Below are positions 2,313 through 41,335 of a stretch of 64,000 nt of DNA, in pieces. Under the pieces are notes generated by a model. That model was given only the letters and a program-made list of their open reading frames with translations. It was not told where the DNA came from and ran no database searches. Numbering within the stretch: the stretch's first letter is position 1; every line of letters begins with the position of its first letter. The position numbers and the translations under genes were made by a program. Where the stretch lies: contig JACQQD010000005.1 of NCBI GenBank assembly GCA_016207165.1, forward strand, positions 98,736-162,735. Direction: 5' to 3'. Origin of the DNA: Candidatus Micrarchaeota archaeon. Its GTDB lineage: Archaea > Micrarchaeota > Micrarchaeia > Norongarragalinales > Norongarragalinaceae.

Positions 2313-3137
2313 ATGGCCATTGAAAAGAAATTCATCCAACAAGCGCTGGCCGACCTCCAGATCAAGACCCTGCTGAACAAGGAATTGGACAAGGCGGGCG
2401 TCTCGGAAATTCTCATCCAAAAAACGCCGATTGCCACCCGCATCACCGTACGCGTGCGTCGGCCGGGCCTCGTGGTGGGAAAGAAAGGAAAAGCCATCAA
2501 GGAACTCTGTGAACTGCTGGAGCGCCGCTTTGCCATCGAGAACCCGCAGTTTGAAGTCATTGAAGTGGCGCAACCCAGTTTGGACGCCCGGCTGATGGCC
2601 GAAAAAATCGGCCGCCGCCTGGAAATGCGTCCCAACGCCAAGCCCATCATGCGCATGGCCTTGAGAGAAATCATGGACGCTGGCGCCTTGGGCGCCGAGC
2701 TGCAGGCCGCCGGAAAAATCGTGGGCAAAGGCGGCAAAGCCAAGACGTTGCGCATGCGCGCCGGTTACCTCAAAAAGTCCGGTGAGCCTACCAAATGGGT
2801 GCGCAAAGGCCACTTCGTCGCGTACCTGAAGGCCGGGGCGGTGGGCATCAGCGTCAAAATCGTGCCCCCCGACGCCGTGTTTCCCGACTCCATCAAAATT
2901 CCCGCGACCATCCCCGAAAAAGTGCCGGTTCAACCCGTGGAAGAAACCGTGGCCGCCGAAGCCAACGCGGTTGACGCCCTCGAGGCAAAGCCGGACGCCG
3001 AGGAAAAACCCAAGAAAACCCGCAAGGCGCCCAAACCCAAGAAACAAAAAGCGCTGGAGCCTGCCGAAGCAGCCGTCCCCGTTCCGCCTGCTTCAGATTC
3101 CCAATCGCCTGTCAGCGAAGAAAAAATCGGTGAATGA
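2313..3137 (+). CDS. rps3: 30S ribosomal protein uS3 (S3), KH domain, Pro/Lys-rich C-terminal tail
   Basis: 274 aa; KH motif ...VRRPGLVVGKKGKAIKEL...; tail EEKPKKTRKAPKPKKQK. Confidence 0.93.
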   Translation: MAIEKKFIQQALADLQIKTLLNKELDKAGVSEILIQKTPIATRITVRVRRPGLVVGKKGKAIKELCELLERRFAIENPQFEVIEVAQPSLDARLMAEKIGRRLEMRPNAKPIMRMALREIMDAGALGAELQAAGKIVGKGGKAKTLRMRAGYLKKSGEPTKWVRKGHFVAYLKAGAVGISVKIVPPDAVFPDSIKIPATIPEKVPVQPVEETVAAEANAVDALEAKPDAEEKPKKTRKAPKPKKQKALEPAEAAVPVPPASDSQSPVSEEKIGE

Positions 3138-3391
3138 CCATGGCACTGATTTCCAAGAAGAAGCTCAAGGACATGACGGTGGACGACTTGAAGGCGGAGC
3201 TTTTGAAGGTCCGCTCCGAGTACCGCGTCGAATCCGGGTCGCGCGCGACCACGGGCAAACCCAACAACCCCGGACGCTACAAACAATTGCGGCGCCTCAA
3301 CGCGCGGCTGTTGACCCTGTTGAGGCAAAAAGGCGTAAAAATTGGAACCGAAGGCCGAACGGCGTCGACGGAGCGCTCAGAAGCTATTTAA
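3134..3391 (+). CDS. rpl29: 50S ribosomal protein uL29 (L29)
   Basis: 85 aa, ...MTVDDLKAELLKVRSEYR...; ATGA overlap with S3. Confidence 0.9.
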   Translation: MTMALISKKKLKDMTVDDLKAELLKVRSEYRVESGSRATTGKPNNPGRYKQLRRLNARLLTLLRQKGVKIGTEGRTASTERSEAI

Positions 3392-8439: not shown

Positions 8440-9104
8440 AATTCCGCGGCCGATTCGGCAAAGAACAACGAAAAAAAGACGACAAGCACTTGGAGTCCTG
8501 GGTGCCCAAAACCAGCCTCGGAAAGAGCGTGCGCGCCGGCGAAATCAATTCGTATGACGCGCTCTTGGCCACACAAAAACCCATTCTCGAACCGGAAATC
8601 ATCGATGTCCTGCTTCCCGACCTCATCGAGGACGTCCTGGAAATCCGCAGCACCCAACGCATGACGTCCTACGGCCGCAAACAACAAATGCGTGCCGTGG
8701 TCCTCGTCGGCAACAAGAAAGGAGTGTTGGGCGTCGGCATCGGCAAAGCCGCGGAAGTGCGCGACGCGATTGCCGAAGGCGTCAAGGACGCCAAAAAACA
8801 CTTGATTTGCGTGCCGTTTGGCTCCGGGTCCTGGGAAGACATTGCCGGACTTCAAAATTCGCTGCCCACGCAAGTCATTGGCAAAAGCGGCTCGACGACC
8901 ATCGTCATCAAGCCCGCGCCCCGCGGCGTGGGACTGGTGGCCGGAAAAGTCTCCAAGCAAGTCCTGGAGTTGGCCGGACTCAAGGACGCGTGGACGTTCA
9001 CCAAGGGCCGCACCCGAAACGTGTTGAACGTCGTGTTGGCGACCATGGACGCCCTGGATACGCTCAACCACCAAAAGAAAGGCGTGAAAGTCTCGGCATC
9101 CTGA
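8436..9104 (+). CDS. rps5: 30S ribosomal protein uS5 (S5)
   Basis: 222 aa, ...VVLVGNKKGVLGVGIGKAAEVRDAI... Confidence 0.93.
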   Translation: MKFRGRFGKEQRKKDDKHLESWVPKTSLGKSVRAGEINSYDALLATQKPILEPEIIDVLLPDLIEDVLEIRSTQRMTSYGRKQQMRAVVLVGNKKGVLGVGIGKAAEVRDAIAEGVKDAKKHLICVPFGSGSWEDIAGLQNSLPTQVIGKSGSTTIVIKPAPRGVGLVAGKVSKQVLELAGLKDAWTFTKGRTRNVLNVVLATMDALDTLNHQKKGVKVSAS

Positions 9105-9114
9105 AAGAGCAAAC

Positions 9115-9459
9115 GTGATTCATTCCATGTTGGTTTTGGTACTGGTTCGCGGACTGCGCAACGTGCGCATGCCCGTCAAAGACGCCTTGGCGCAATTGGG
9201 TTTGACGCGCCGCTACCACGCGGTACTGGTTGACGACTCCCAAAACGTCCAAGGCATTCTTAAGAAAGCCGAGCACCTCGTGGCCTGGGGCCCGGCTTCC
9301 GAAAAGACGGTTTCCGCATTGAAAAACAAGGGCCTTGCCCCGTACCGCTTGCACGCGCCCAAAAACGGTTTGCCGCCCGTCAAGCGCCGCTTCCCCCATG
9401 GCGCGTACGGCAACTGGAGCGAAGGCATCAACGCCCTGATTGAAGGCATGGTGGCATAA
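9115..9459 (+). CDS. rpl30: 50S ribosomal protein uL30 (L30)
   Basis: 114 aa, ...LVLVRGLRNVRMPVKDALAQLGLTRRYHAVLV... Confidence 0.88.
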   Translation: MIHSMLVLVLVRGLRNVRMPVKDALAQLGLTRRYHAVLVDDSQNVQGILKKAEHLVAWGPASEKTVSALKNKGLAPYRLHAPKNGLPPVKRRFPHGAYGNWSEGINALIEGMVA

Positions 9460-9465
9460 CGATTT

Positions 9466-9885
9466 ATGGCTCGACGCATCCGATCCCGAAAATTCCGGCA
9501 CCGCGGCAACCGCACCCACGGCGGCGGCAACACGAAGAACCGCCGCGGCAAAGGCAACAAAGGCGGCGTGGGCCGCGCCGGCTACCACAAGCACCGACGG
9601 CTCTACTTCATCAAGTTCGAGGGAAGCACCAAGCGCGACAAGGGACTTCACGGCTTTACCAACCCCGCCAAGAAAGTCTACGCCACCATTTCCCTGGACC
9701 AACTCCAGGACGCCATCGGGAAATTCCCCCAAAACGACCAAGGCGTCTACCAAGTCGTGATCCCCCAGACGAAAGTGCTTTCCGGCGGACAACTTTCCGC
9801 GAAAGCCCACGTCAAGGCCTACGGCTTCTCGGCGAAAGCCAAGGAAAAAATCGAGAAAGCCGGCGGCACGACGGCCACCTCCTGA
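9466..9885 (+). CDS. rpl15: 50S ribosomal protein uL15 (L15)
   Basis: 139 aa, MARRIRSRKFRHRGNRTHGGGNTKNRRGKG... Confidence 0.93.
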   Translation: MARRIRSRKFRHRGNRTHGGGNTKNRRGKGNKGGVGRAGYHKHRRLYFIKFEGSTKRDKGLHGFTNPAKKVYATISLDQLQDAIGKFPQNDQGVYQVVIPQTKVLSGGQLSAKAHVKAYGFSAKAKEKIEKAGGTTATS

Positions 9886-25348: not shown

Positions 25349-25497
25349 CCCGCTGTAGCTCAACCTGGCAGAGCACCTGACTGTAGGACTGCGGACCGTT
25401 TTTGTAGGTACGTTTTCCGGTTACAGCCTGCTCTGTCTTTAGAGACAGATTCCTGAAAGAAATCAGGGTGTTGCCAGTTCAAATCTGGCCAGCGGGA
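25349..25497 (+). tRNA. tRNA-Tyr(GUA) precursor with ~75-nt canonical 37/38 intron (25387-25461)
   Basis: acceptor CCCGCTG/CAGCGGG + A73; D-arm GCTC-AACCTGGCA-GAGC; anticodon stem CCTGA/TCAGG with loop CUGUAG|intron; variable GTGTT; T-arm GCCAG-TTCAAAT-CTGGC. Confidence 0.75.
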
Positions 25498-25507
25498 CTT
25501 TCTCTTT

Positions 25508-27189
25508 TTATGGACTTTTGGGTCCGAATTTTTGTATGGCTTTGGTTACGCCTTGTTCTACTGACGTCACCAAATCCTCTTTGGTCAAGTATTCCATGGC
25601 GGCCGAGTGCAAGATTTTGTTCTTGACCCGCGGGTTGGTCACCGCCAAGTACACGTCGCCGCCGGCTTTCTTGCGGCTTTCCACGATGCCATCCAAGATG
25701 GCAACCGCGGAAGAGTCCATGTAGTCCACGTCCAGCAAGTCCAACACCAATACCTTGCATGTTTCCCTCGGCGTTTCGTCCGAGATTCTTTCCAGCCGGT
25801 ACGCTGAACCAAAGAACAGGGGGCCGCTGACGCGGTAGGTGCGCGCGATGCCGGACACGTCCGGCGCCAGAGTCGAGATTGTGACGGCCGGTGCCGGCGC
25901 GGGTACCAACTTGATTTCCACGTTCTCGCTCATTTTCTTGATGAAGACCAGACCCGCCAACGTGAATCCGATGAGGATGGCGGTCGTCAATTCCAGAAAC
26001 ACGGTGGCCGTCACCGTGGCCAGAAAGACGAGTACGTCGCTTTTGCTGTCGGACAAAAAGTGCTTCAACGCGTCAAAGTCCATGAGGTGGACGGCTGTAA
26101 ACGTCAAGATGCCGGCCAGAACCGCCATGGGAATGAATTGGGCCAGCGGCGCTAACGCCAACAGCACCAATACCAAGAGCCCCGAATGCACTACCGCGGA
26201 GAGCCGCGTTTTGGCGCCGTTTTTAACGTTGGTTGCCGAACGCACGATGACGCCGGTGGCCGCAATGCCGCTGAAAAACGGCACCACGGCATTGGCCATT
26301 CCCTGTCCAACGAGCTCCTTGCTGGAGTTGTGTTTGGTGCCCGTCATGCCATCCAAGGACACGGCGGACACTAGGCTTTCGATGCTGGCAAGCAATGCGA
26401 TGGCCAATGCGGAAGGAAAAAGTTCGTTTAGTTGCGAGAGTGGAAAGTCAGGCACCGCAAAACCCGGGAGACTGGATGGAATGGTGCCGATGTGCGCCAC
26501 GTCCAAGAAAAAATCACGGAAACCCCGGTGGCGGTCACCAGCGCCACAAAGGAAGCGGGAATTTTGTGCGTGAGCCTTGGAATTCCCCAAAGCACGGCCA
26601 AGGTCGTCGCCGACAAAGCCAACGCCGCGAGACTGGCTTGGTTGAGGTGGGAAATCAGTGCAGCCATTTGCGCCAGGGCACCCTCGGCGCTCACAGCTAC
26701 TCCCGACAAGTTGCCCAGTTGTCCTAAAATGATCAGCAAGCCGATGCCGGTCGTGAATCCCACCACTACAGTGTATGGAATGAATTTCACCACCCGGCCG
26801 ATGCCGGAAATGCCCATGGCTATCTGCAGGATGCCTGCCAAAAACCCGGCCATCAACAGTCCTTGGACGCCGAACTTTGCCGCCACGCTATACAACAACA
26901 CGGTCATGGCCGCTGCCGGTCCCGCGACTCCCAATTCCGTGCCGCCGAACACGGCGACAATGGCTCCGCCAATGATGGCGGTGTAAAGACCGTACGCCGG
27001 CGGCACTCCGGAGGCCACGGCGAGAGCCAGACAAAGAGGAATCGCCACCACGGTCACAATGGTGCCAGCGATCACGTCGTGCTTCCAGTGGCGCAGCGAG
27101 AGTTTGGCGGGACGGAAGAGCCCCAGCAAGCCGGAAAGCAATTTCCGGCTGACATAAACGGCCATAGCGGGTCTTAACGGGAGGTGCAT
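25508..27189 (-). pseudogene. SulP-family sulfate/anion permease with C-terminal STAS domain, interrupted by a frameshift in an A6/T6 homopolymer near 26508-26513
   Basis: two overlapping ORFs (26428..27189 N-terminal TM part; 25508..26590 C-terminal TM + STAS ...VLVLDLLDVDYMDSSAVAILDGIVESRKKAGG...); adding one T restores ...GVSVIFFLDVAHIGTIPSSLPGF... Confidence 0.7.
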
Positions 27190-27683: not shown

Positions 27684-28268
27684 CTAAGGCTTGACGGCGA
27701 CAAATCCCTGCACGTCATCGGCCCAGCGGATGCCTTGAAACCCCGCGTGCGAGAGGCGTTCCTGGACGCCGCGCGCCACGTTTTTCCCGCCTTTTTTTCC
27801 AGGGCTTCCCACGTAGTGAAACAGTTTTCCCCTGCGCTTAAGCACGCGGAACAGTTCCCGGTAAAACGCTTCGGCGTACAGTTCTCCGGCCAAGGAAAGC
27901 CGGGGCGGGTCATGCGAGACGGCGTGGAATGACGCGTCCGGCAACGTCTTGACGAATTCGGCCGCATCCCCCAAAAAGCGTTGGATGTTTTCGTTGTTGA
28001 AAAGCCGCATGGAATCCGGGTTTTTCTTCGAGATGTCCACCACGTCCGCATCGATTTCAATGGTCGTCACGAGCGCACCTTTTTTGGACATTTCAATGGC
28101 GCAATACCCCAGGCCCGTGCACACGTCTAGTGCCTTCATTCCGGGGTGAACGCCCAAGCGCTTGACTTTGTCTTCGGCGTCTTTTAGCGGCGACTTGTTT
28201 TTGGTTTGGTGCATGCGGATGCCGTCGATTTCCAGGGTGCCGTCCACCAGCTTGTAATGCGAAGGCAT
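27684..28268 (-). CDS. class I SAM-dependent methyltransferase (small amino-methyltransferase-like; DPPR motif IV)
   Basis: 194 aa; motif I ...ALDVCTGLGYCAIEM...; motif IV ...FHAVSHDPPRL... Confidence 0.6.
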   Translation of the reverse strand: MPSHYKLVDGTLEIDGIRMHQTKNKSPLKDAEDKVKRLGVHPGMKALDVCTGLGYCAIEMSKKGALVTTIEIDADVVDISKKNPDSMRLFNNENIQRFLGDAAEFVKTLPDASFHAVSHDPPRLSLAGELYAEAFYRELFRVLKRRGKLFHYVGSPGKKGGKNVARGVQERLSHAGFQGIRWADDVQGFVAVKP

Positions 28269-28544: not shown

Positions 28545-29651
28545 TCACGCCGTGACGCGCAGGGCTTGATTCAGCGTCTGGTCCACCAACCCGTCGGGAA
28601 GCCGTTCTTCCAGTTTCTCCAAGTGCCGCGCGTCGGTGCGCGTGGCCGGATGCCGGCTGACCAGGCTCTGGCAACAATCCAGATACGGCTGGCGCGACAA
28701 ATCGTATGTACCGATTTTTTCCGCGATGCCGATGATTTCCTTTTTGTCGTACGTCAACAACGGCCGAAGCATGGGTAATTTCACGGCATCCTGTATTGAC
28801 CCTAAGTTTGACAACGTCTGCGACGAGACTTGGGCGAGGTTTTCGCCGGTGGCAATGCCTTCCGCGTTTTCTTGGACCGCAATTTGTTGGGCCACGCGTG
28901 CCATGAACCGCCGGAAAACGGGGAGAGCGAATCGTTCCGGAACATCCAAGGCCGCCAAGGTGAACTCGTTGTACGGCACCAGGTAAACGGTGTTGGCCAG
29001 CGTCCACGGCTTGAGCTGGCGGGCGAGGTTGAGGATTTTGAGCGACTTTTCCTCCACGTTTTCACGGTGCGGGTGGAAGTGCACGTACACGTTCTTGATG
29101 CCGCGCTTGGCCATGAGCCACGCGGCCACCGGCGAGTCAAACCCACCGCTTAAAAGTGTGACCACCTTTCCGGAGACGCCCACCGGCAAACCCCCGAGTC
29201 CCGCGTGCTTTCCGCCGTACGCTACCGCCTTGTCTCTGAGCACGTCGACGTGTACCACGGCTTTGGGGTTTTTCACAGCCAACGCCACGCCCCGTTTTTC
29301 CAGGCGGCGCGTGAGTTGGCGCACGATTTCCGGGGACTGAAATTCAAACGACTTGTCGGAGCGGTTTACTTCCACTTTGACGGGGCCGCCCGCGCTTTCG
29401 GCCAGGCGCGCCACGGCGTCTTCCATGCCGGACAAACTCCGCTTTGCGTCGAGGCACTCGGCAAACCATGACACGCCAAAGACTTTCTCGATTTTCGGTA
29501 ACGCGGACGCGTCGGCATCCAGAAAGAACCGGTGTTCGACGAGTTTGGCTTTGACGTCCGTGGCGTTCTCCAGGTTGCGCTGCAGCTGCCGCTGGAACAC
29601 GGGCCTGTTTCGGCCCTTGGTGAACAGTTCTCCGTAGTGGACGACGATCAT
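28545..29651 (-). CDS. thiI: tRNA 4-thiouridine synthase ThiI (THUMP + PP-loop ATP pyrophosphatase)
   Basis: 368 aa; PP-loop ...VVTLLSGGFDSPVAAWLM...; N-terminal THUMP region. Confidence 0.85.
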   Translation of the reverse strand: MIVVHYGELFTKGRNRPVFQRQLQRNLENATDVKAKLVEHRFFLDADASALPKIEKVFGVSWFAECLDAKRSLSGMEDAVARLAESAGGPVKVEVNRSDKSFEFQSPEIVRQLTRRLEKRGVALAVKNPKAVVHVDVLRDKAVAYGGKHAGLGGLPVGVSGKVVTLLSGGFDSPVAAWLMAKRGIKNVYVHFHPHRENVEEKSLKILNLARQLKPWTLANTVYLVPYNEFTLAALDVPERFALPVFRRFMARVAQQIAVQENAEGIATGENLAQVSSQTLSNLGSIQDAVKLPMLRPLLTYDKKEIIGIAEKIGTYDLSRQPYLDCCQSLVSRHPATRTDARHLEKLEERLPDGLVDQTLNQALRVTA

Positions 29652-29743
29652 TTCTTCTCACCGGGTGTGAGGCGGACTAAGCGCCAGGGGGCGGAGCCCC
29701 CGGGGCTTAGGTGCAACAGTTCTCCGTAGTGGACAACGATCAT
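29623..29743. repeat. short hairpin insertion (29652-29714) flanked by a 29-bp direct duplication of the thiI start region (aacagttctccgtagtggacRacgatcat at 29623-29651 and 29715-29743)
   Basis: direct inspection; the inserted core gaggcggacTaagcgccagggggcggagcccccggggctt shares its ends with a second element at 39399-39476. Confidence 0.6.
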
Positions 29744-29800
29744 GAGGCCCCTTGTGGTCTGGAAAGGGTTTATAGGCTTTCATCGGCACCCAAAAATCCT

Positions 29801-30808
29801 ATGGCCATCGTGTTGGGGTTGACGGGAGAGAATTGTGCGGGTAAGGGGACCGTCGCCGAATACTTGGAACGAAAAGGATTCCACTATTACTCCTTGTCCG
29901 ACGTCATCCGCGAGGAACTCGCGGCGGAAGGCGCGGAGATCACGCGCGAGGCCCTCATTGAAAAAGGCAATCTGTTGCGGGAGACGCAGGGTTCCGACGT
30001 TCTGGCCCGCAAAACCATGGACAAGCTCTCCCACGAGAGGAACTTTGTCGTTGACTCGTTTCGCAACCCCCACGAAGTCAAGGCGTTCAAGAACAAAAAC
30101 AAGAACTTTTTCTTGTTGTACGTCACCGCTTTGCCGGAAGTACGCTTTGAGCGCATGAAGGCCCGCGGCCGCGAGTCGGACCCCAAGACGTTTGACGCGT
30201 TTGAGCGCATCGAAAAAAAAGAGCGGGAAAGCGCGTCGGAACAGCACCAAAGCATTTCCGCTTGCATCGGGCTTGCCGACCGCACCATTGAAAACAACGC
30301 CGACTTTTCGGCGTTGTACGACGCCGTGGACCGAACGCTCGCCGATCTTTCCAAGGAGTTTTCGGTGGACCGGCCATCTTGGGACGAGTACTTCATGGGC
30401 ATCGCAAAGATGGCGTCCACGAGGTCCAACTGCATCAAGCGCAAGGTGGCCGCGGTCATCGTCAAGGACAAGCGCATCATTTCCACGGGCTACAACGGCA
30501 CCCCCCGGGGAACGAGGAATTGCAACGAAGGGGGTTGTCCGCGCTGCAACAACTTCTCGCCGTCCGGCGCTTCCCTGGAGGAATGCTTGTGCTCGCACGC
30601 GGAGGAGAACGCCATCGTCCAAAGCTCGTACCACGGCGTGTCCATTGCCGGGTCCACGATTTACTCGACGTTTTCGCCTTGCCTATTGTGCGCGAAAATG
30701 ATCGTCAATGCGGGAATTCGGGAAGTCGTGTACGTAGCCGAATACAGCGTGTCGGATACCGCGAAAAAAATGTTGCAGGAAGCCGGCGTGCAGCTGAGGA
30801 AAGTCTAG
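29801..30808 (+). CDS. fusion of N-terminal P-loop nucleotide/nucleoside kinase domain and C-terminal dCMP/cytidine deaminase (zinc CDA fold)
   Basis: MAIVLGLTGENCAGKGTVAEYL Walker A at the N-terminus; deaminase motifs ...CIKRKVAAVIVKD...TGYNG...HAEENAI...YSTFSPCLLCAKMIVNAGI...; track ORF begins at GTG 29711 inside the duplicated repeat, ATG 29801 preferred. Confidence 0.7.
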   Translation: MAIVLGLTGENCAGKGTVAEYLERKGFHYYSLSDVIREELAAEGAEITREALIEKGNLLRETQGSDVLARKTMDKLSHERNFVVDSFRNPHEVKAFKNKNKNFFLLYVTALPEVRFERMKARGRESDPKTFDAFERIEKKERESASEQHQSISACIGLADRTIENNADFSALYDAVDRTLADLSKEFSVDRPSWDEYFMGIAKMASTRSNCIKRKVAAVIVKDKRIISTGYNGTPRGTRNCNEGGCPRCNNFSPSGASLEECLCSHAEENAIVQSSYHGVSIAGSTIYSTFSPCLLCAKMIVNAGIREVVYVAEYSVSDTAKKMLQEAGVQLRKV

Positions 30809-34878: not shown

Positions 34879-34987
34879 TTTTTGGGCGCCACGCATCCCT
34901 CGTGGGCACTTCGTCGTCCGTCGGCTGGGTCTTGGTTTTTATTCCTTTTCGTGGTCAAGCACTCTCTGGAGTTGGATGTTCGTGGGC

Positions 34988-36922
34988 ATGAACTTGACGC
35001 ACAAAATCATTTCCGAGCACCTCGTCGACGGCCAAATGGTGGTGGGCGAGGAAATCGGCATCAAAGTGGACCAGACCCTCACCCAGGATGCCACGGGCAC
35101 CATGTCGTTTTTGCAGTTTGAAGCTCTGGGCCTGCCCCGCGTCCAAACCGAAGTGGCCGTTTCCTACGTCGACCACAACATGCTTCAGACGAGTTTCGAG
35201 AACGCCGACGACCACCGGTACTTGCAAAGCGTGGCCCAAAAGTACGGCGTGTACTTTTCACGCCCCGGAAACGGCATCTGCCACCAAGTGCACTTGGAGC
35301 GCTTTTCCGTTCCTGGCAAATTCATGCTGGGTTCCGACTCGCATACCCCCACGTGCGGCGGCATGGGGATGCTTGCCATTGGGGCCGGCGGCTTGGATGT
35401 CGCTGTAGCCATGGGCGGCGGACCGTTTTACACCAAAATGCCGAAAGTCCTGGGCATCCAGTTGAAAGGCAAGCTCCAACGCCACGTGGCCGCCAAAGAC
35501 ATCATCCTGGAGGTACTCCGACGGCTGACTGTCAAGGGAGGCGTGGGGAAAGTCATCGAGTACTACGGCGAAGGCGTCAAGTCGCTGGACGTGTACCAGC
35601 GCTCCACCATCACCAACATGGGCGCGGAACTGGGTTCCACCACTTCGATTTTTCCGACGGACGAAAAAACGCGGGAGTTCCTCAAGCGCCAAGGTCGTGA
35701 AGACGCCTACCAGGAAGTTGGCCCCGACGCCGATGCGACGTACGATGAGCATCTTGAAATCGACTTGAACACCTTGGAGCCCCTTATCGCCAAGCCGCAA
35801 AGCCCGGACAACGTTGTTCCGGTTCGGGAAGTAGAAGGCTTGGCCGTCCAGCAGGTGCTCGTCGGCTCCTGCACGAATTCCTCTTTGAAGGACCTCATGA
35901 CTGTAGCGACGTATTTGAAGGGCAAGAAAGTGCATTCCGACGTCTCCATGGCCCTCTCACCGGGCTCCAAACAGGTCTTCCAGGAAATCGCGCGCAACGG
36001 CGCTTTGGCGGATTTCATCAACGCCGGCGTCCGCGTTCTGGAAAGCGCGTGCGGTCCCTGCATCGGCATGGGACAAGCTCCTGGAAGTGACATGGTTTCC
36101 CTGCGAACATTCAACCGCAACTTCGCCGGACGCTCCGGCACCAAGAACGACAAAGTGTACTTGTGTTCGCCGGAGGTCGCCGTCGCGTCAGCCATCACCG
36201 GCAAAGTCACGGACCCCCGAAGCCTTCCGGACCTCGCCATCCACGTGCCCACCGAGATTGTGATTGACGACTCCATGATTCTGGCGCCGTCGGACGACCC
36301 CGACTCCGTGGAAGTCTTGCGCGGCCCCAACATCAAGCCCGTGCCCCTCAAGGAGCCCGTAACCAATGCGTTGGATGGCGTGGTGCTCATCAAGACGGGC
36401 GACAACGTCACCACGGACCACATCATGCCTGCCGGCGCCAAAATCCTTCCCTTGCGCTCCAACGTGCCCGCGATTTCCGAATTCGTGTTCTGCAACGTGG
36501 ACGCCGATTTCGTCAAACGCGCCAAGGAAAACCACGGCGGTTTCATCGTCGGCGGCGAAAACTACGGACAGGGGTCCTCCCGCGAGCACGCGGCCCTGGC
36601 GCCGATGTACTTGGGTGTCAAGGCCGTGTTCGCCAAGAACTTCGCCCGCATCCACAAGGACAATTTGGTGAACTTCGGCATCGTTCCCCTTGAAATTGAC
36701 GGGAGCACGTACGACGACCTCCAGCAAGGGCACGTGTTGTCCATGGAGGGCGTGCGCGAGGCCCTAGAGTTGGGGTCCACCAGCGTGGAATTGGCCAACT
36801 CGTCAAGCAAGAAGAAATACGCCGCGAAACTCAACTTGACGCCGCGCCAGCGCCACATCATCCTGGCGGGCGGCACACTGAACTGGACGCGGGCAAACGC
36901 GCCCCAAGCCAGCCTGGCGTGA
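34988..36922 (+). CDS. acn: aconitate hydratase (aconitase family; Fe-S ligand motifs ...GSCTNSS... and ...ACGPCIGMGQ...)
   Basis: ~645 aa; ...SDSHTPTCGGMGMLAIGAGGLD...; swivel domain ...GENYGQGSSREHAA... Confidence 0.75.
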   Translation: MNLTHKIISEHLVDGQMVVGEEIGIKVDQTLTQDATGTMSFLQFEALGLPRVQTEVAVSYVDHNMLQTSFENADDHRYLQSVAQKYGVYFSRPGNGICHQVHLERFSVPGKFMLGSDSHTPTCGGMGMLAIGAGGLDVAVAMGGGPFYTKMPKVLGIQLKGKLQRHVAAKDIILEVLRRLTVKGGVGKVIEYYGEGVKSLDVYQRSTITNMGAELGSTTSIFPTDEKTREFLKRQGREDAYQEVGPDADATYDEHLEIDLNTLEPLIAKPQSPDNVVPVREVEGLAVQQVLVGSCTNSSLKDLMTVATYLKGKKVHSDVSMALSPGSKQVFQEIARNGALADFINAGVRVLESACGPCIGMGQAPGSDMVSLRTFNRNFAGRSGTKNDKVYLCSPEVAVASAITGKVTDPRSLPDLAIHVPTEIVIDDSMILAPSDDPDSVEVLRGPNIKPVPLKEPVTNALDGVVLIKTGDNVTTDHIMPAGAKILPLRSNVPAISEFVFCNVDADFVKRAKENHGGFIVGGENYGQGSSREHAALAPMYLGVKAVFAKNFARIHKDNLVNFGIVPLEIDGSTYDDLQQGHVLSMEGVREALELGSTSVELANSSSKKKYAAKLNLTPRQRHIILAGGTLNWTRANAPQASLA

Positions 36923-36976
36923 CGGGCGGTTCACGGTTAAAGCAAAGCAACGGTTAGGGAGTGTGGGATTGAACGC

Positions 36977-38179
36977 ATGGCTGAAAAAATAACGGTGAAC
37001 AACGGCATTCTGAACGTTCCGGACCACCCCATCATTCCCCTCATTGAGGGCGACGGCGTGGGCGTGGACATTACGCCGGTCATGACGACCGTCGTTGACG
37101 CGGCCGTGGCCAAGGCTTCCGGCGGCAAGAAGAAAATTGAATGGAAGCCGATTCTGGCCGGCGAGAAAGCCATTGCCAAGACCAATGAACTGTTGCCCCA
37201 GGAAAGCATTGACGCCATCCAGGAGTACGTCGTCTCCATCAAGGGTCCCCTGACCACGCCGGTTGGCGGCGGGTTCCGGAGCCTGAACGTAACGCTTCGC
37301 CAGGTGCTGGACTTGTACGCGTGCGTGCGGCCCGTCAAGTGGTATCCCGGCATTCCCAACCCCATGAAGCAACCGGAGAAGTTGAACGTCAAAATCTTCC
37401 GCGAGAACACGGAAGACGTGTACGCTGGCATCGAGTGGGATGCCGGCAGTGCCGAAGCCAACAAGCTCATTGAATTTGTCGCCTCCATGGGAAAGAAAAT
37501 CCGGCCCAACTCGGCGGTGGGCATCAAACCCATCTCGGAATTCGGCTCCAAGCGCATCGTTCGCGCGGCCATTCACAACGCCATGAAGTACGGCTTGAGC
37601 AAGGTCACTTTGGTGCACAAGGGCAACATCATGAAGTTCACCGAAGGCGGATTCCGGAAGTGGGGCTACGAGGCCGCCAAGGAGTTTTCCAACACGGTTA
37701 CGGAAGAGGAAGTCGCCAAAGGCGCGTCCGCGGAAGGAAAAATCATCGTCAACGACCGCATTGCTGACTCCATGTTCCAACAACTTTTGCTCCGCCCCGA
37801 TGAATACCAGGTGTTGGCGACCATGAACCTCAACGGCGACTACTTGTCGGACGCCGCCGCGGCGCAAACCGGGGGCCTGGGCATCGCGCCGGGCGCCAAC
37901 ATCAACTACCAGACCGGCGTCGCGTTGTTTGAAGCCACGCACGGAACCGCTCCGAAGTACGCGGGCCAGGACAAAGTCAACCCCGGTTCGCTGTTGTTGT
38001 CCGCCGTCATGATGCTGCGCTACATGGACTGGAAAACAGCCGCCGACTTGGTGGAAAACGCGTTCCAGAAAACCATCGACCAGAAAATCGTTACCTACGA
38101 TCTTTCCCGGCAGATGGAAGGCGCCCAAGAAGTTCGGTGCTCGGAATTCGGGGACGCCATCATCCGGAACATGGATTGA
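36977..38179 (+). CDS. icd: NADP-dependent isocitrate dehydrogenase (prokaryotic homodimeric type)
   Basis: 400 aa; ...[15 protein letters not shown]...[18 protein letters not shown]... Confidence 0.85.
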
Positions 38180-38183
38180 TCGT

Positions 38184-39398
38184 ATGGCTCAACGCGCAAT
38201 CCGTGAAATCGACGCCAAAAACATTTTGGTCCACGCCGGCGTGGCGAAATGGCACGGCGTCTTGGTGGACGGGCAAACGGACTGGAAGACGCTTTCCAAA
38301 GACCACCCGTGGCTGTTGAAGGAAAAGCTGGTGGTCAAGCCCGACCAATGCTTTGGCCAACGAGGCAAGCACGGCTTGGTTTTGTTGAACGCCGATTTGA
38401 AGGGCGTCGAGCAATTCGTGCGGAAAAACATGAACCGGGTCGTTGAATTAAACGGCGTGAAAGGCCCCTTGACGCACTTCTTGATCGAGCCGTTTGTCCC
38501 GCATCAAGCCGAGTACTACGCCGCCATCCAGACCGAGAAAGACCACGACGTGGTTTTTTTCTCCTTGAAAGGCGGCGTGGACGTGGAGGAAAACTGGGAC
38601 CGCATCCAACCATTCAAAGTCGGAGTCCTTGACGACTTGGATTCGGTGTCCTTTGGCTTGCCCAAGATGCCGGAGCGCGACGCGGTCCACGCGTTTCTCA
38701 AGAAACTCTACCGCGTCTTTGCCGAGAACGACTTTTCGTTTTTGGAGTTGAACCCTTTTTGCATGGTGGACGGAAAGCCGGTGCTGCTGGATGCCGTGGC
38801 GCGGCTGGACGACACGGCGGCCTTCAAAGGCAAGTGGAACGTCGAGTTCCCGGCGCCTTTTGGCCGGACGTTGTCCAAGGAGGAAGCCTACATCAAGTCG
38901 TTGGACGAGAAAACCGGTGCGTCATTGAAGCTGACCGTCTTGAACCCGAAGGGAAAAATCTGGACGCTGGTCGCCGGCGGCGGAGCGTCCGTGGTGTACG
39001 CCGACACCATCGTCGACTTGGGCTTCCAAAAAGAGCTGGCCAACTACGGAGAGTATTCCGGCAATCCCAACGACGAAGAAACCTACCTTTACACCAAAAC
39101 CGTGCTGGAATTGTTGGTCAAAGGAAACGGGCAGATTCTTTTGATTGGCGGCGGCATCGCCAACTTCACCGACGTGGCCAAGACCTTCAAAGGCATCATC
39201 CAGGCGCTGAGCGAATTTGCGCCGGCGCTCAAGAAAAAAGGCGTGAAAATATACGTTCGCCGCGGGGGTCCCAACTACCAGCAAGGCTTGGAACACATGC
39301 GGCAACTGGGCGAGAAAACGGGTTTGTCCATCCAAGTCTTTGGCCCGGAAACGCATATGACGAAGATCGTTCCCATGGCGCTTGAGGAGCTGAAATGA
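38184..39398 (+). CDS. aclB: ATP-citrate lyase small subunit AclB-like (ATP-grasp, succinyl-CoA synthetase beta-like)
   Basis: 404 aa; ...EIDAKNIL...VVKPDQCFGQRGKHGLV...; CoA-ligase fold; immediately upstream of aclA-like gene. Confidence 0.75.
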   Translation: MAQRAIREIDAKNILVHAGVAKWHGVLVDGQTDWKTLSKDHPWLLKEKLVVKPDQCFGQRGKHGLVLLNADLKGVEQFVRKNMNRVVELNGVKGPLTHFLIEPFVPHQAEYYAAIQTEKDHDVVFFSLKGGVDVEENWDRIQPFKVGVLDDLDSVSFGLPKMPERDAVHAFLKKLYRVFAENDFSFLELNPFCMVDGKPVLLDAVARLDDTAAFKGKWNVEFPAPFGRTLSKEEAYIKSLDEKTGASLKLTVLNPKGKIWTLVAGGGASVVYADTIVDLGFQKELANYGEYSGNPNDEETYLYTKTVLELLVKGNGQILLIGGGIANFTDVAKTFKGIIQALSEFAPALKKKGVKIYVRRGGPNYQQGLEHMRQLGEKTGLSIQVFGPETHMTKIVPMALEELK

Positions 39399-39521
39399 AT
39401 GCGTTTACATGAGTTTAGGGAAAGGGGCGAGGCGGAGCAAGCGCCAGGGGAAAACCGTAGGTTTGCCCCGGGGCTTGCATGCACGAAGATCGTTCCCATG
39501 GCGCTTGAGGAGCTGAAGTGA
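39352..39521. repeat. second copy of the hairpin insertion (39399-39476) flanked by a ~40-45-bp direct duplication of the aclB 3' end/aclA start region (gcatRtgacgaagatcgttcccatggcgcttgaggagctgaaRtga)
   Basis: direct inspection: 39352-39397 and 39475-39521 nearly identical; core ...gaggcggagCaagcgccagggg-aaaaccgtaggtttg-ccccggggcttgcatgc. Confidence 0.6.
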
Positions 39522-41335
39522 AAAAGTTTATGACTCTTTTCGACGAAAACACGCAGGCCATCATCTTCGGCATGCAAGCCCAAGTCGTCCAACGCATGCT
39601 GGATTTCGACTTCATGTGCGGCCGGAAAACCCCGTCGGTGGCCGCCGTGGTCAACCCTTCGGACACTCGGATGCTGGCCGTCTTTTTCGGTTCCAAGCAA
39701 GTCTTGGTTCCTGTGTACGCGTCCACGAAAGAAGCCTTTCAAAAACATCCCGTTGCCTCGGTGTTCATCAACTTTGCTTCGTTCCGCTCCGCGTTTGACA
39801 CCACGTGGGATGCCTTGGATTTGCCGCAAGTTTTGTCCGTGGCCGTGATTGCCGAAGGCATGCCTGAGCGCGACACCCGGAGGCTTGCGGCGAAAGCCAA
39901 AAAACTTTCCAAGCCCTTCATCGGCCCGGCCACCGTCGGCGGCCTGACGGCGGGTTGCTTCAAGATTGGCAACACCGGCGGTGCCGTGGACGCCATGATC
40001 GACGCGAAACTCTACCGCTCCGGCTCCGTGGGATTCGTTTCCAAGTCCGGCGGCATGTCCAACGAATTGTTCAACCTGCTTTCCCACCACACCGACGGCG
40101 TCTGCGAAGGCATCGCCATCGGCGGCGACCGCTTCCCCGGCACCACGCTTTACGACCACGTGCAACGGTTCGAGAAGGATCCCAAAATCAAGCTCATCGT
40201 CGTCTTGGGTGAATTGGGGGGAACCGACGAGTACGACATCGCCGACGCGGTGGCGAAAAAGAAGATCAAAAAGCCGGTGGTGGCCTGGGTCACCGGCACC
40301 TGCGCGGCGCTTTTTGCCACCGAAGTCCAATTCGGCCATGCGGGCGCCAAGAGCGGTTCCAAGAAGGAAAGTGCGCAAGAAAAAAACGAGGCCCTAAAAA
40401 AAGCGGGGGTCTTCGTTCCGAAAAGCTACGACGACTTCGGTGAACTCATCCAAAAAGTATTCGAGAAGCACGTGGGAAAAATTCCCGCGGAAACGCAAAA
40501 CCCCCCCGTCATTCCGGAAGACTTTTCCGTGGCGGTAAAGAAAAACCGAGTCCGCCGGCCCGCCTCCATCGTGTCCAGCATCTCGGATGACCGCGGCGAA
40601 GACGTGCTGTACCACGGCGAGACCCTGACTTCCCTTCTGGAAAGAAAAGCCAGCCTGGGGGACGTCATCGCTTTGTTGTGGTTCAAAAAGAAGCTTCCCG
40701 CCTGGGCCACTGAGTTTATGGAAATGACGCTCAAAATCACGGCCGACCACGGGCCCGCTGTTTCCGGGGCGCACAACGCCATCGTCGCCTCGCGCGCCGG
40801 CAAGGACTTGGTTTCGTGCCTGGCTTCGGGTTTGTTGACCATCGGCCCCCGTTTTGGAGGCGCCATTGACGATGCGGCCCGCTACTGGCAAGCGGCCGTC
40901 TCTCAAGGACAGGCGCCCAAGGCGTTCGTGGATGAAATGAAAGCCAAGAACGTCTTGATTCCCGGCATTGGCCACCGCGTCAAATCCATCCAAAACCCCG
41001 ACGCCCGCGTGGCCGCGCTCAAGGCCTACGCCCAAAAGCATTTCCCGTCCACCCAGCACCTGCAATTCGCCTTGGACGTCGAGAAACTGACCACCCAGAA
41101 GAAAGGCAACCTGATTCTCAACGTGGACGGCTGCATTGCCGCCTTGTTTCTGGACCTTTTCGATTCCTGCCCCGAGTTTTCCGGCGAGGAAAAAAGACAG
41201 CTGGTGGACATTGGGGTCCTGAATGCCTTTTTTGCTTTGGGGCGAAGCATTGGCATGATTGGGCACGCCATCGACCAAAAACGCCTGCAACAGCCCTTGT
41301 ACCGGCACGACTGGGACGACGTGCTGTACCTCTAA
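39518..41335 (+). CDS. aclA: ATP-citrate lyase large subunit AclA-like (succinyl-CoA synthetase alpha-like CoA-binding + citrate-synthase-like domain)
   Basis: 605 aa; ...SKSGGMSNELFNLLS...VQFGHAGAK... (phospho-His loop); C-terminal ...IPGIGHRVKS... citrate synthase-like; start GTG 39518 or ATG 39530. Confidence 0.8.
   Translation: MKKFMTLFDENTQAIIFGMQAQVVQRMLDFDFMCGRKTPSVAAVVNPSDTRMLAVFFGSKQVLVPVYASTKEAFQKHPVASVFINFASFRSAFDTTWDALDLPQVLSVAVIAEGMPERDTRRLAAKAKKLSKPFIGPATVGGLTAGCFKIGNTGGAVDAMIDAKLYRSGSVGFVSKSGGMSNELFNLLSHHTDGVCEGIAIGGDRFPGTTLYDHVQRFEKDPKIKLIVVLGELGGTDEYDIADAVAKKKIKKPVVAWVTGTCAALFATEVQFGHAGAKSGSKKESAQEKNEALKKAGVFVPKSYDDFGELIQKVFEKHVGKIPAETQNPPVIPEDFSVAVKKNRVRRPASIVSSISDDRGEDVLYHGETLTSLLERKASLGDVIALLWFKKKLPAWATEFMEMTLKITADHGPAVSGAHNAIVASRAGKDLVSCLASGLLTIGPRFGGAIDDAARYWQAAVSQGQAPKAFVDEMKAKNVLIPGIGHRVKSIQNPDARVAALKAYAQKHFPSTQHLQFALDVEKLTTQKKGNLILNVDGCIAALFLDLFDSCPEFSGEEKRQLVDIGVLNAFFALGRSIGMIGHAIDQKRLQQPLYRHDWDDVLYL

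Follow-up and report, generated by a model that had tools for sequence, protein, structure and literature searches.

What is a fused kinase-deaminase gene doing in an archaeal genome, defending the cell or feeding its nucleotide pools? A 64,000-nucleotide (nt) stretch of a Candidatus Micrarchaeota archaeon genome (contig JACQQD010000005.1, positions 98,736 to 162,735 of the forward strand), which we call the window, raises this question, since its positions 29801-30808 encode, on the plus strand, a protein of 335 amino acids (aa) in which a P-loop kinase-like half and a zinc dCMP deaminase half are joined in one open reading frame (ORF). The sequence-only reading, made from the letters of the window before this analysis, had seen in it the architecture of the anti-phage dCTP deaminases (AvcD/DcdV) and favored a defense role, naming a bifunctional housekeeping or salvage enzyme as the alternative. 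That alternative is the better reading: with a probability of roughly 0.8, the product is a long-form dCMP deaminase with a housekeeping role, making dUMP for thymidylate synthesis, which for the window itself means an ordinary core nucleotide-metabolism gene.

The plus-strand ORF is intact from a GTG at 29711 to the stop codon ending at 30808 (ORF list). We take the gene to be 29801-30808 because the close homologs, which are 333 to 348 aa long, all begin at a Met matching the ATG at 29801. The position of a TTTATA sequence 26 nt upstream fits an archaeal promoter and supports the same start; it is likely to be an archaeal TATA box, and this would imply a leaderless or near-leaderless mRNA. 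In two relatives (loci L082 and L084), GGGTTTATAGG/GGGTTTAAAGC lie at an equal distance, while the remaining intergenic sequence has diverged. The public NCBI gene model for this genome (P0044) spans only 30155-30808, that is, residues 119-335 (217 aa, named "cytidine deaminase"), and the kinase half is absent from the deposited annotation. A search of the window for paralogs of either half found none besides the fusion gene. The motifs from which the fusion had been recognized (GLTGENCAGKGT, HAEENAI, and SPCLLCAKM) are all present, at residues 6-17, 266-272, and 292-300, respectively. The features of the gene are given below; conservation refers to a family alignment of 38 sequences with 33 to 78% pairwise identity (alignment A1), on which an AlphaFold2 model (AF2; mean pLDDT, 92.8) was also built.

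29801..30808, plus strand: coding sequence of the kinase-like/dCMP deaminase fusion, stop codon included (ORF list, ortholog starts, Pfam, AF2 model).
29769..29774, plus strand: TTTATA, putative archaeal TATA box 26 nt 5' of the ATG (direct sequence reading).
29801..30355, plus strand: N-terminal P-loop nucleoside monophosphate (NMP)-kinase-like domain of the UPF0200/adenylate kinase type, residues 1-185 (Pfam, NCBIfam PRK08356, PDB profile, Foldseek).
29816..29851, plus strand: Walker A motif or P-loop GLTGENCAGKGT, residues 6-17, with G6, G9, G14, and K15 (invariant in A1).
29891..29911, plus strand: SLSDVIR, putative counterpart of the adenylate kinase NMP-binding segment, with R37 (SLSDxxR in most family members).
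30143..30184, plus strand: LID-like segment RFERMKARGRESDP, with R115, R118, and further Arg residues (R115 and R118 at least 90% conserved in A1).
30365..30805, plus strand: C-terminal zinc dCMP deaminase domain, residues 189-335 (Pfam PF00383, PDB matches, Foldseek).
30485..30511, plus strand: TGYNGTPRG, holding the dCMP deaminase allosteric-site motif G(Y/W)N(A/G) for the activator dCTP or the inhibitor dTTP (conserved in A1).
30518..30550, plus strand: NCNEGGCPRCN cysteine cluster, probable second (structural) zinc site (C241 at least 90% conserved in A1).
30596..30616, plus strand: HAEENAI, residues 266-272, with the catalytic His (zinc ligand) and Glu (proton shuttle) (fits the HxE motif of PMC12088426).
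30674..30700, plus strand: SPCLLCAKM, residues 292-300, PCxxC zinc-binding motif (P293, C294, and C297 at least 90% conserved in A1).

The two halves are truly fused, with domain matches that lie far beyond chance. Pfam places dCMP_cyt_deam_1 on residues 193-312 (E value, 1.6e-24) and AAA_18, AAA_17, and ADK on residues 6-138 (E values from 3e-12 to 1e-5). Profile searches of the PDB agreed on both sides: the deaminase half matched the dCMP deaminases of Streptococcus mutans, human, phage T4, and cyanophage S-TIM5 (E values from 2e-46 to 2e-34), and residues 3-180 matched the UPF0200 protein SSO1041 of S. solfataricus (3h0k/3lw7; E value, 3e-32). When the AF2 model was submitted to Foldseek, the predicted C-terminal half superposed on dCMP deaminases with a TMt of 0.87 to 0.90 (root mean square deviation [rmsd], 2.0 to 3.1; range for 2HVW, 4P9C, 1VQ2, and 2W4L, 0.70 to 0.90 at a probability of 1.00), and the predicted N-terminal half resembled AMP-bound SSO1041 (3LW7; TMt, 0.85; rmsd, 2.6). 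Dephospho-CoA kinase, AK1, and UMP/UMP-CMP kinase trailed SSO1041 widely in the PDB profile search and, with lower TM values, in Foldseek. The kinase half thus sides with core-type kinases, AdkA-like UPF0200/SSO1041 first and these three after it, a grouping that the sequence-only reading had named in advance as one that would speak against defense. It is not itself a dephospho-CoA kinase, a candidate that we rejected on a CoaE match far below the cutoff (E value, 0.055) and a TIGR00152 score of 15.9 bits against a cutoff of 65.55; "dephospho-CoA kinase" is nevertheless the name on some public records of Micrarchaeota homologs, others of which are called "deaminase," "AAA family ATPase," or "dCMP deaminase."

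The motif residues are strongly conserved. In A1, G230 and E268 of the deaminase half are invariant together with the four Walker A residues listed above, and Y231, G233, and H266 join the Arg, Cys, and Pro residues already named at 90% conservation or more. We assigned SLSDVIR to the NMP site, and Walker A, NMP, and LID residues to their functions, from what we take to be general for adenylate kinases, and the structural zinc role of the NCNEGGCPRCN cluster is likewise presumed from the T4 and S. mutans enzymes; a cluster of this type is also present in the fungal enzyme and in a Pontibacillus dCMP deaminase. The motif definitions in PMC12088426, in which G(Y/W)N(A/G) marks the site where dCTP and dTTP act allosterically on dCMP deaminases and HxE and PCxxC are the zinc catalytic motifs, are satisfied by GYNG at residues 230-233, HAE at 266-268, and PCLLC at 293-297. 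From these motifs and from the fold, we infer dCMP as the substrate and control by dCTP and dTTP. The C-terminal domain would then turn dCMP into the thymidylate synthase substrate dUMP and so balance the dCTP and dTTP pools. No curated prokaryotic family model names the 335-aa fusion. Indeed, no NCBIfam model reaches its cutoff on the protein: PRK08356 scores 86.8 bits (cutoff, 189) and TIGR02571, the ComEB equivalog model, 114.8 bits (cutoff, 219.45), so that the C-terminal half is a dCMP-deaminase-family domain but no ComEB equivalog. A literature search on dCMP deaminase in Micrarchaeota returned nothing relevant.

How close, then, is this protein to the defense enzymes? For comparison, we assembled an alignment (A2) of seven named or close anti-phage dCTP deaminases of 501 to 626 aa, which were retrieved by tblastn against plasmids; one of them is the p58 protein of E. 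coli H10407, for which Hsueh et al. report tests. Their genes adjoin integrases, transposases, restriction-modification methyltransferases, or ImmA/IrrE genes or sit on small mobilizable plasmids. Aligned with hhalign, A1 and A2 matched with a probability of 100 and an E value of 2.2e-52 over 335 columns covering both domains and the linker (BLASTP of the protein itself against a named anti-phage enzyme gave an E value of 3e-23), and this indicates that the fusion has a common origin in the 335-aa family and the defense family. Hsueh et al. had already noted the fused architecture, and AvcD homologs, in archaea and eukaryotes. The architectural part of the original proposal therefore stands as full-length homology; the defense role drawn from it is not supported, and the protein fails the tests for membership in the defense family.

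Model-based detection is where the two are most easily confused. The PADLOC dCTPase model PDLC02373 matches the protein with an E value of 9.4e-65 (217.7 bits; profile positions 155-494 of 630), and the antiphage_deaminase model NF041025 is its best NCBIfam match by E value, although the score of 162.9 bits stays well short of the 400-bit cutoff. When the PADLOC model was calibrated, it gave 479 to 585 bits for real members and 134 to 232 bits for the 335-aa family, as well as 117 bits (E value, 2.2e-34) for a standalone Victivallales deaminase (L070:8001-8438) and 93 bits (E value, 4.9e-27) for B. subtilis ComEB (L092:504-1070). Because even ComEB scores 93 bits, a match to this model is not diagnostic. 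Tal et al. define the family by a length of >350 aa and a defense score of >0.33, and their validated members have 532 and 576 aa; our protein, at 335 aa, is shorter than this limit, and in place of a defense island or mobile context, it has core-gene neighbors and synteny in relatives.

Sequence divergence and phylogeny point the same way. Identity to the anti-phage member from Pantoea, which has an insert of ∼110 aa in the kinase domain and another of ∼60 aa before HAE, is 26%, compared with 65 to 73% between the deaminase half and standalone dCMP deaminases. The protein lacks the inserts that the defense family has in its kinase and deaminase domains and also its C-terminal tail, and it keeps the Walker A Lys, the NMP-site Arg, the LID Arg residues, and GYNG, all of which are lost in the seven defense proteins. 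Trees (neighbor-joining, Kimura distances, and a few dozen sequences, with S. cerevisiae Dcd1 and Vibrio cholerae AvcD left out) split the defense proteins from all others with bootstrap values of 93 for the deaminase half and 99 for the full length; on the other side of this split, the Micrarchaeota form a clade with a bootstrap value of 67 and the fungi one with 100. The protein itself falls outside the defense clade. The properties of Dcd1 and AvcD that we use here come from annotation, literature, and general knowledge, not from sequences.

Distribution gives a second line of evidence. More than 100 Micrarchaeota homolog clusters are fusions of 333 to 348 aa with 61 to 91% identity to our protein, and for this phylum, the assumption that archaeal dCMP deaminases are standalone proteins does not hold; among the 120 best homologs, the named taxa are almost all Micrarchaeota (Bilamarchaeum, Anstonellaceae, Norongarragalinales, and others). 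A scan with one genome per species, from which the bacterial and Woesearchaeota homologs come, found the ∼335-aa fusion at 48 to 59% identity in Omnitrophota, Myxococcota, Acidobacteriota/Bryobacterales, Gemmatimonadota, Spirochaetes, Elusimicrobia, and Methylomirabilis and at 38 to 45% identity in Woesearchaeota; the bacterial carriers include free-living, large-genome Acidobacteriota with chromosomes of 5.7 to 6.4 Mb. The standalone deaminases that are 65 to 73% identical to the C-terminal half belong to Victivallales/Lentisphaerae and Acidobacteriota. In one Woesearchaeota locus (L067), the fusion gene is followed directly on its 3' side by a paralog of the kinase half that stands alone and has 200 aa (MIVGVTGPICAGKG...; 9074-9676). 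A HMMER search over 1.84 billion cluster representatives returned 657 clusters (50% identity level) at an E value of ≤1e-30, with dozens of full-length fusions of 325 to 370 aa at 35 to 52% identity, some of them from chytrids.

With a Batrachochytrium protein as the query, the fungal "deoxycytidylate deaminase" was found to have the full-length fused architecture kingdom-wide, in Chytridiomycota, Mucoromycota, and Ascomycota (Candida, Cyberlindnera, Trichoderma, and Sclerotinia), the chytrid query being covered to 95 to 98% by 120 fungal homologs among the matches listed. The Candida tropicalis enzyme aligns with our protein by BLASTP over residues 3-334 versus 1-329 at 34% identity (E value, 2e-57). 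S. cerevisiae Dcd1 is the biochemically characterized member of these fungal long-form dCMP deaminases; to our knowledge, no role is known for the kinase-like half of the fungal enzyme. A length of ∼335 aa in every Micrarchaeota homolog listed, together with the many bacterial phyla, the fungi, and core-gene neighborhoods, amounts to the widely conserved housekeeping fusion that the sequence-only reading had set down as evidence against its own proposal.

The surroundings of the gene had been described as an accessory block beside a mobile-element-like repeat. In fact, the neighbors are core metabolism and translation genes. Upstream lie ribosomal protein L13, a 513-aa protein of unknown function, an intron-containing tRNA, a frameshifted SulP permease, tRNA-Asp, a small S-adenosylmethionine (SAM) methyltransferase, and, divergently oriented, thiI; downstream follow a zinc alcohol dehydrogenase family gene (ADH), flavin mononucleotide (FMN) reductase, a hypothetical gene, geranylgeranyl reductase, aconitase, isocitrate dehydrogenase, and two ATP-citrate lyase subunits. 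When ten neighbors were compared with the PADLOC models, no defense match was found except for a partial, generic one to a methyltransferase fold. It concerns the 194-aa SAM methyltransferase (minus strand, 27684-28268), which is syntenic and partially matches "mad2" (E value, 1.9e-18; profile positions 277-395 of 492), and it probably reflects the shared methyltransferase fold only.

The order methyltransferase-thiI-fusion gene-ADH-FMN reductase is held in the relatives L082/L083 (ortholog, 78% identical) and L084 (91%). In another lineage, Bilamarchaeum dharawalense has the order CTP synthase-aIF5B-x-gene-PCNA in common with a contig of 798 kb, and in a bacterial example, a Terriglobales locus, adenosine deaminase, peptidase, and respiratory genes are nearby. 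Compared with the L084/L082 orthologs (91%/78% identity for the fusion protein), the neighbors give 86/55% for ThiI, 75/54% for the methyltransferase, 67/65% for ADH, 89/80% for FMN reductase, 83% for ribosomal protein L13, and 91% for aconitase, so the fusion gene is among the slowest-evolving of the syntenic block, at a rate like that of aconitase. Core context, synteny, and slow rate are together the opposite of a sparse, mobile, fast-evolving defense gene.

The repeat is a single duplication. Two copies of a 29-nt direct repeat (29623-29651 and 29715-29743; 28 of the 29 positions identical) flank a GC-rich segment of 63 nt. Copy 1 coincides with the start of the minus-strand gene thiI, at its 5' end, and copy 2 lies 92 nt upstream of it; copy 2, read in the direction of thiI, begins an ORF of 31 codons (MIVVHYGELLHLSPGGSAPWRLVRLTPGEKK) whose TGA overlaps the thiI ATG (ATGA). 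Neither the repeat nor the 63-nt insert has a further copy in the window, and both are absent from L082 and L084. The repeat arose locally in the leader of thiI, by duplication or insertion, and has no visible link to the deaminase gene. We rejected a mobile element on the grounds that the insert is single copy in the window and that the region is not conserved in L082 or L084. In the AvcID subtype, an AvcI RNA encoded immediately 5' of the gene in the same orientation controls AvcD, and AvcI homologs share no sequence (Hsueh et al.). The 149 nt between our gene and divergent thiI, considered as a candidate for such an RNA, are unconserved in L082 and L084 and fold no better than shuffled sequence (z = −0.74), and we set them aside as an unlikely source of one. 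That our protein is nonetheless an anti-phage or anti-virus dCTP deaminase of the AvcD/DcdV type, inactive until infection and then deaminating dCTP and dCMP and starving viral replication, appears very improbable to us: the shared domain order, the full-length homology, the leading model matches, and the archaeal reports of Hsueh et al. speak for it, but length, scores, clade, divergence, retained active-site residues, core context, and the absence of a conserved upstream region all speak against it.

What the kinase-like half contributes to a housekeeping dCMP deaminase is a separate matter. It retains the full NMP kinase residue set under strong purifying selection, and on that ground, a catalytically active kinase looks to us like an even bet. 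The proposed mechanism is that the N-terminal domain would act as an NMP phosphotransferase on a pyrimidine deoxynucleotide and would interconvert dCDP and dCMP, so that the products of ribonucleotide reductase could supply the fused deaminase. This specific role, the equilibration of dCDP and dCMP to feed the deaminase, is a good deal more doubtful than kinase activity as such; it would fit the observation of Tal et al. that the defense enzymes deplete dCTP, dCDP, and dCMP together.

The N-terminal domain may instead not be a kinase at all, but a regulatory or oligomerization module that binds nucleotides, senses levels of ATP or of a deoxynucleoside triphosphate (dNTP), and tunes the deaminase, the protein still being a housekeeping dCMP deaminase. 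The P-loop domain of AvcD and of the E. coli dCTP deaminase cannot be dispensed with even though it has no Walker A lysine, and this suggests that it binds a ligand or serves the structure; the fungal members hold GxxxxGK[ST] with a degenerate NMP-site region; and the nearest solved relative, SSO1041, has no assigned activity (a literature search on UPF0200, SSO1041, and PRK08356 found no paper). Set against this, the prokaryotic members conserve the NMP kinase set (K15, SLSDxxR in most, and R115/R118) at 33 to 78% identity, which a domain that only binds nucleotides would hardly account for, and the deaminase domain already has an allosteric GYNG site of its own. We regard such a module, the main alternative for this half, as rather unlikely.

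DPANN archaea are generally held to be dependent on scavenged nucleotides, and a salvage enzyme would suit such a host-dependent archaeon: its N-terminal domain would phosphorylate scavenged deoxycytidine, as a nucleoside kinase, and the deaminase would turn the resulting dCMP into dUMP. The sequence-only reading had raised this option, and fusions of consecutive steps are common. The domain, however, is NMP-kinase-like (GKGT P-loop, SDxxR, and short LID; SSO1041, AK1, and UMP-CMP kinase as relatives) and bears no resemblance to the deoxycytidine/deoxyguanosine kinase (dCK/dGK) family of nucleoside kinases, with only marginal Pfam DNMK and CoaE matches. The fusion is present as well in the free-living Acidobacteriota and in fungi, and it is therefore no DPANN-specific salvage adaptation. 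We consider a salvage kinase improbable.

Tentatively, and with somewhat less confidence than would be needed to prefer it, the idea of a bifunctional enzyme can be carried further: the prokaryotic ∼335-aa family may both transfer phosphate on deoxycytidine nucleotides (dCDP/dCTP to and from dCMP), channeling dCMP to the deaminase, and be the stock from which the AvcD-type defense enzymes arose. If so, the AvcD type would have arisen through loss of the P-loop lysine and the NMP site and gain of inserts, and the indispensable "kinase" domain of the defense enzymes would be explained. The fused ancestor that the defense dCTP deaminases share with a widespread housekeeping enzyme would offer a plain example of a single architecture giving rise to both metabolism and immunity.

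Several points weigh against our preferred explanation, the housekeeping dCMP deaminase. Its homology to the defense family is genuine and extends over the full length, with a PADLOC dCTPase E value of 9e-65; the trees are neighbor-joining trees on small samples; and the 50 to 59% identity between archaeal and bacterial members implies that the gene was once transferred horizontally. In the fungal members, the motif at the NMP site has degenerated, so the N-terminal domain may not need to be a kinase. The distribution is that of clusters and loci; presence in every Micrarchaeota genome, a single copy, and a sole route to dUMP would go beyond it, and thyA/thyX, dcd, dut, and cmk were not located. 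Among the window neighbors compared across 80 genome loci, synteny was found at the genus or family level only, not phylum-wide. The neighbors of the bacterial homologs showed no recurrent genes and no defense genes, and one single-linkage cluster there was contaminated by spurious high-GC ORFs. Small variable genes also occur near the orthologs: a HicA toxin gene in L082 (10350-10577), a 219-aa gene in L084 (7267-7926), which separates thiI from the deaminase gene, and, in L096, a MazE-like gene (3034-3309). The ortholog flanks tolerate such small insertions while the core order stays.

Other observations concern the wider neighborhood. The SulP sulfate permease (minus strand, 25508-27189) is split into two overlapping ORFs, 26428-27189 for the N-terminal part and 25508-26590 for the C-terminal part with the STAS domain, which indicates a frameshift, due either to a pseudogene or to a sequencing error; it is flanked by two tRNA genes and is not at the corresponding place in L084. 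At 25349-25497 (plus strand), the Rfam tRNA model of 71 positions spans 149 nt, implying an intron of ∼75 nt, and ARAGORN gave no call. Aconitase, isocitrate dehydrogenase, and the two ATP-citrate lyase-type subunits (citrate-binding/ATP-grasp and CoA-ligase/citrate synthase domains) occupy 34976-41332 (plus strand), a cluster that, in a DPANN-type archaeon, hints at citrate cleavage or a partial tricarboxylic acid cycle capability.

For the surveying of defense systems, the consequence is practical. Automatic censuses could assign an anti-phage system to Micrarchaeota and to several phyla of bacteria that probably have none, and PADLOC dCTPase matches need length and score filters before they are counted as defense systems. 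The prokaryotic housekeeping members, whose kinase active site appears complete by sequence, would also be the easiest place to learn what the kinase half does.

Among known systems, the standalone dCMP deaminases (DCTD/ComEB; S. mutans 2HVW, T4 Cd, human DCTD, and cyanophage S-TIM5) share the fold, HxE and PCxxC, and G(Y/W)N(A/G) with the C-terminal half but have no N-terminal kinase-like domain. The UPF0200/SSO1041 "adenylate kinase-related protein" (3LW7 and 3H0K) and PRK08356 match the N-terminal half but are standalone proteins of ∼180 to 195 aa. A PDB sequence and structure search for a full-length AvcD-type structure found none, only separate deaminase and kinase structures. The fungal Dcd1-type enzymes (Candida tropicalis, Trichoderma reesei, and Batrachochytrium dendrobatidis) are collinear homologs of ∼320 to 360 aa with the N-terminal GxxxxGK[ST], NCN[DE]GGCxRCN, GYNG, HAE, and PCxxC in common; their N-terminal domain, however, lacks the SLSDxxR NMP-site segment and has inserts, and they form their own clade. 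AvcD/DcdV, finally, has the identical domain order and the motifs [AS]DxxIxN, IDSIRxPxE, HAE, and PCxxC in common with our protein, whereas the defense proteins carry an insert of 60 to 90 aa before HAE and a C-terminal extension and, in some, an insert of ∼110 aa in the kinase domain. The P-loops of the seven defense proteins are degenerate (GSGC, GTEL, and GAGG), with no Walker A lysine in register, the SLSDxxR Arg and the LID arginines are missing from them, and GxN[D/E] replaces GYNG.

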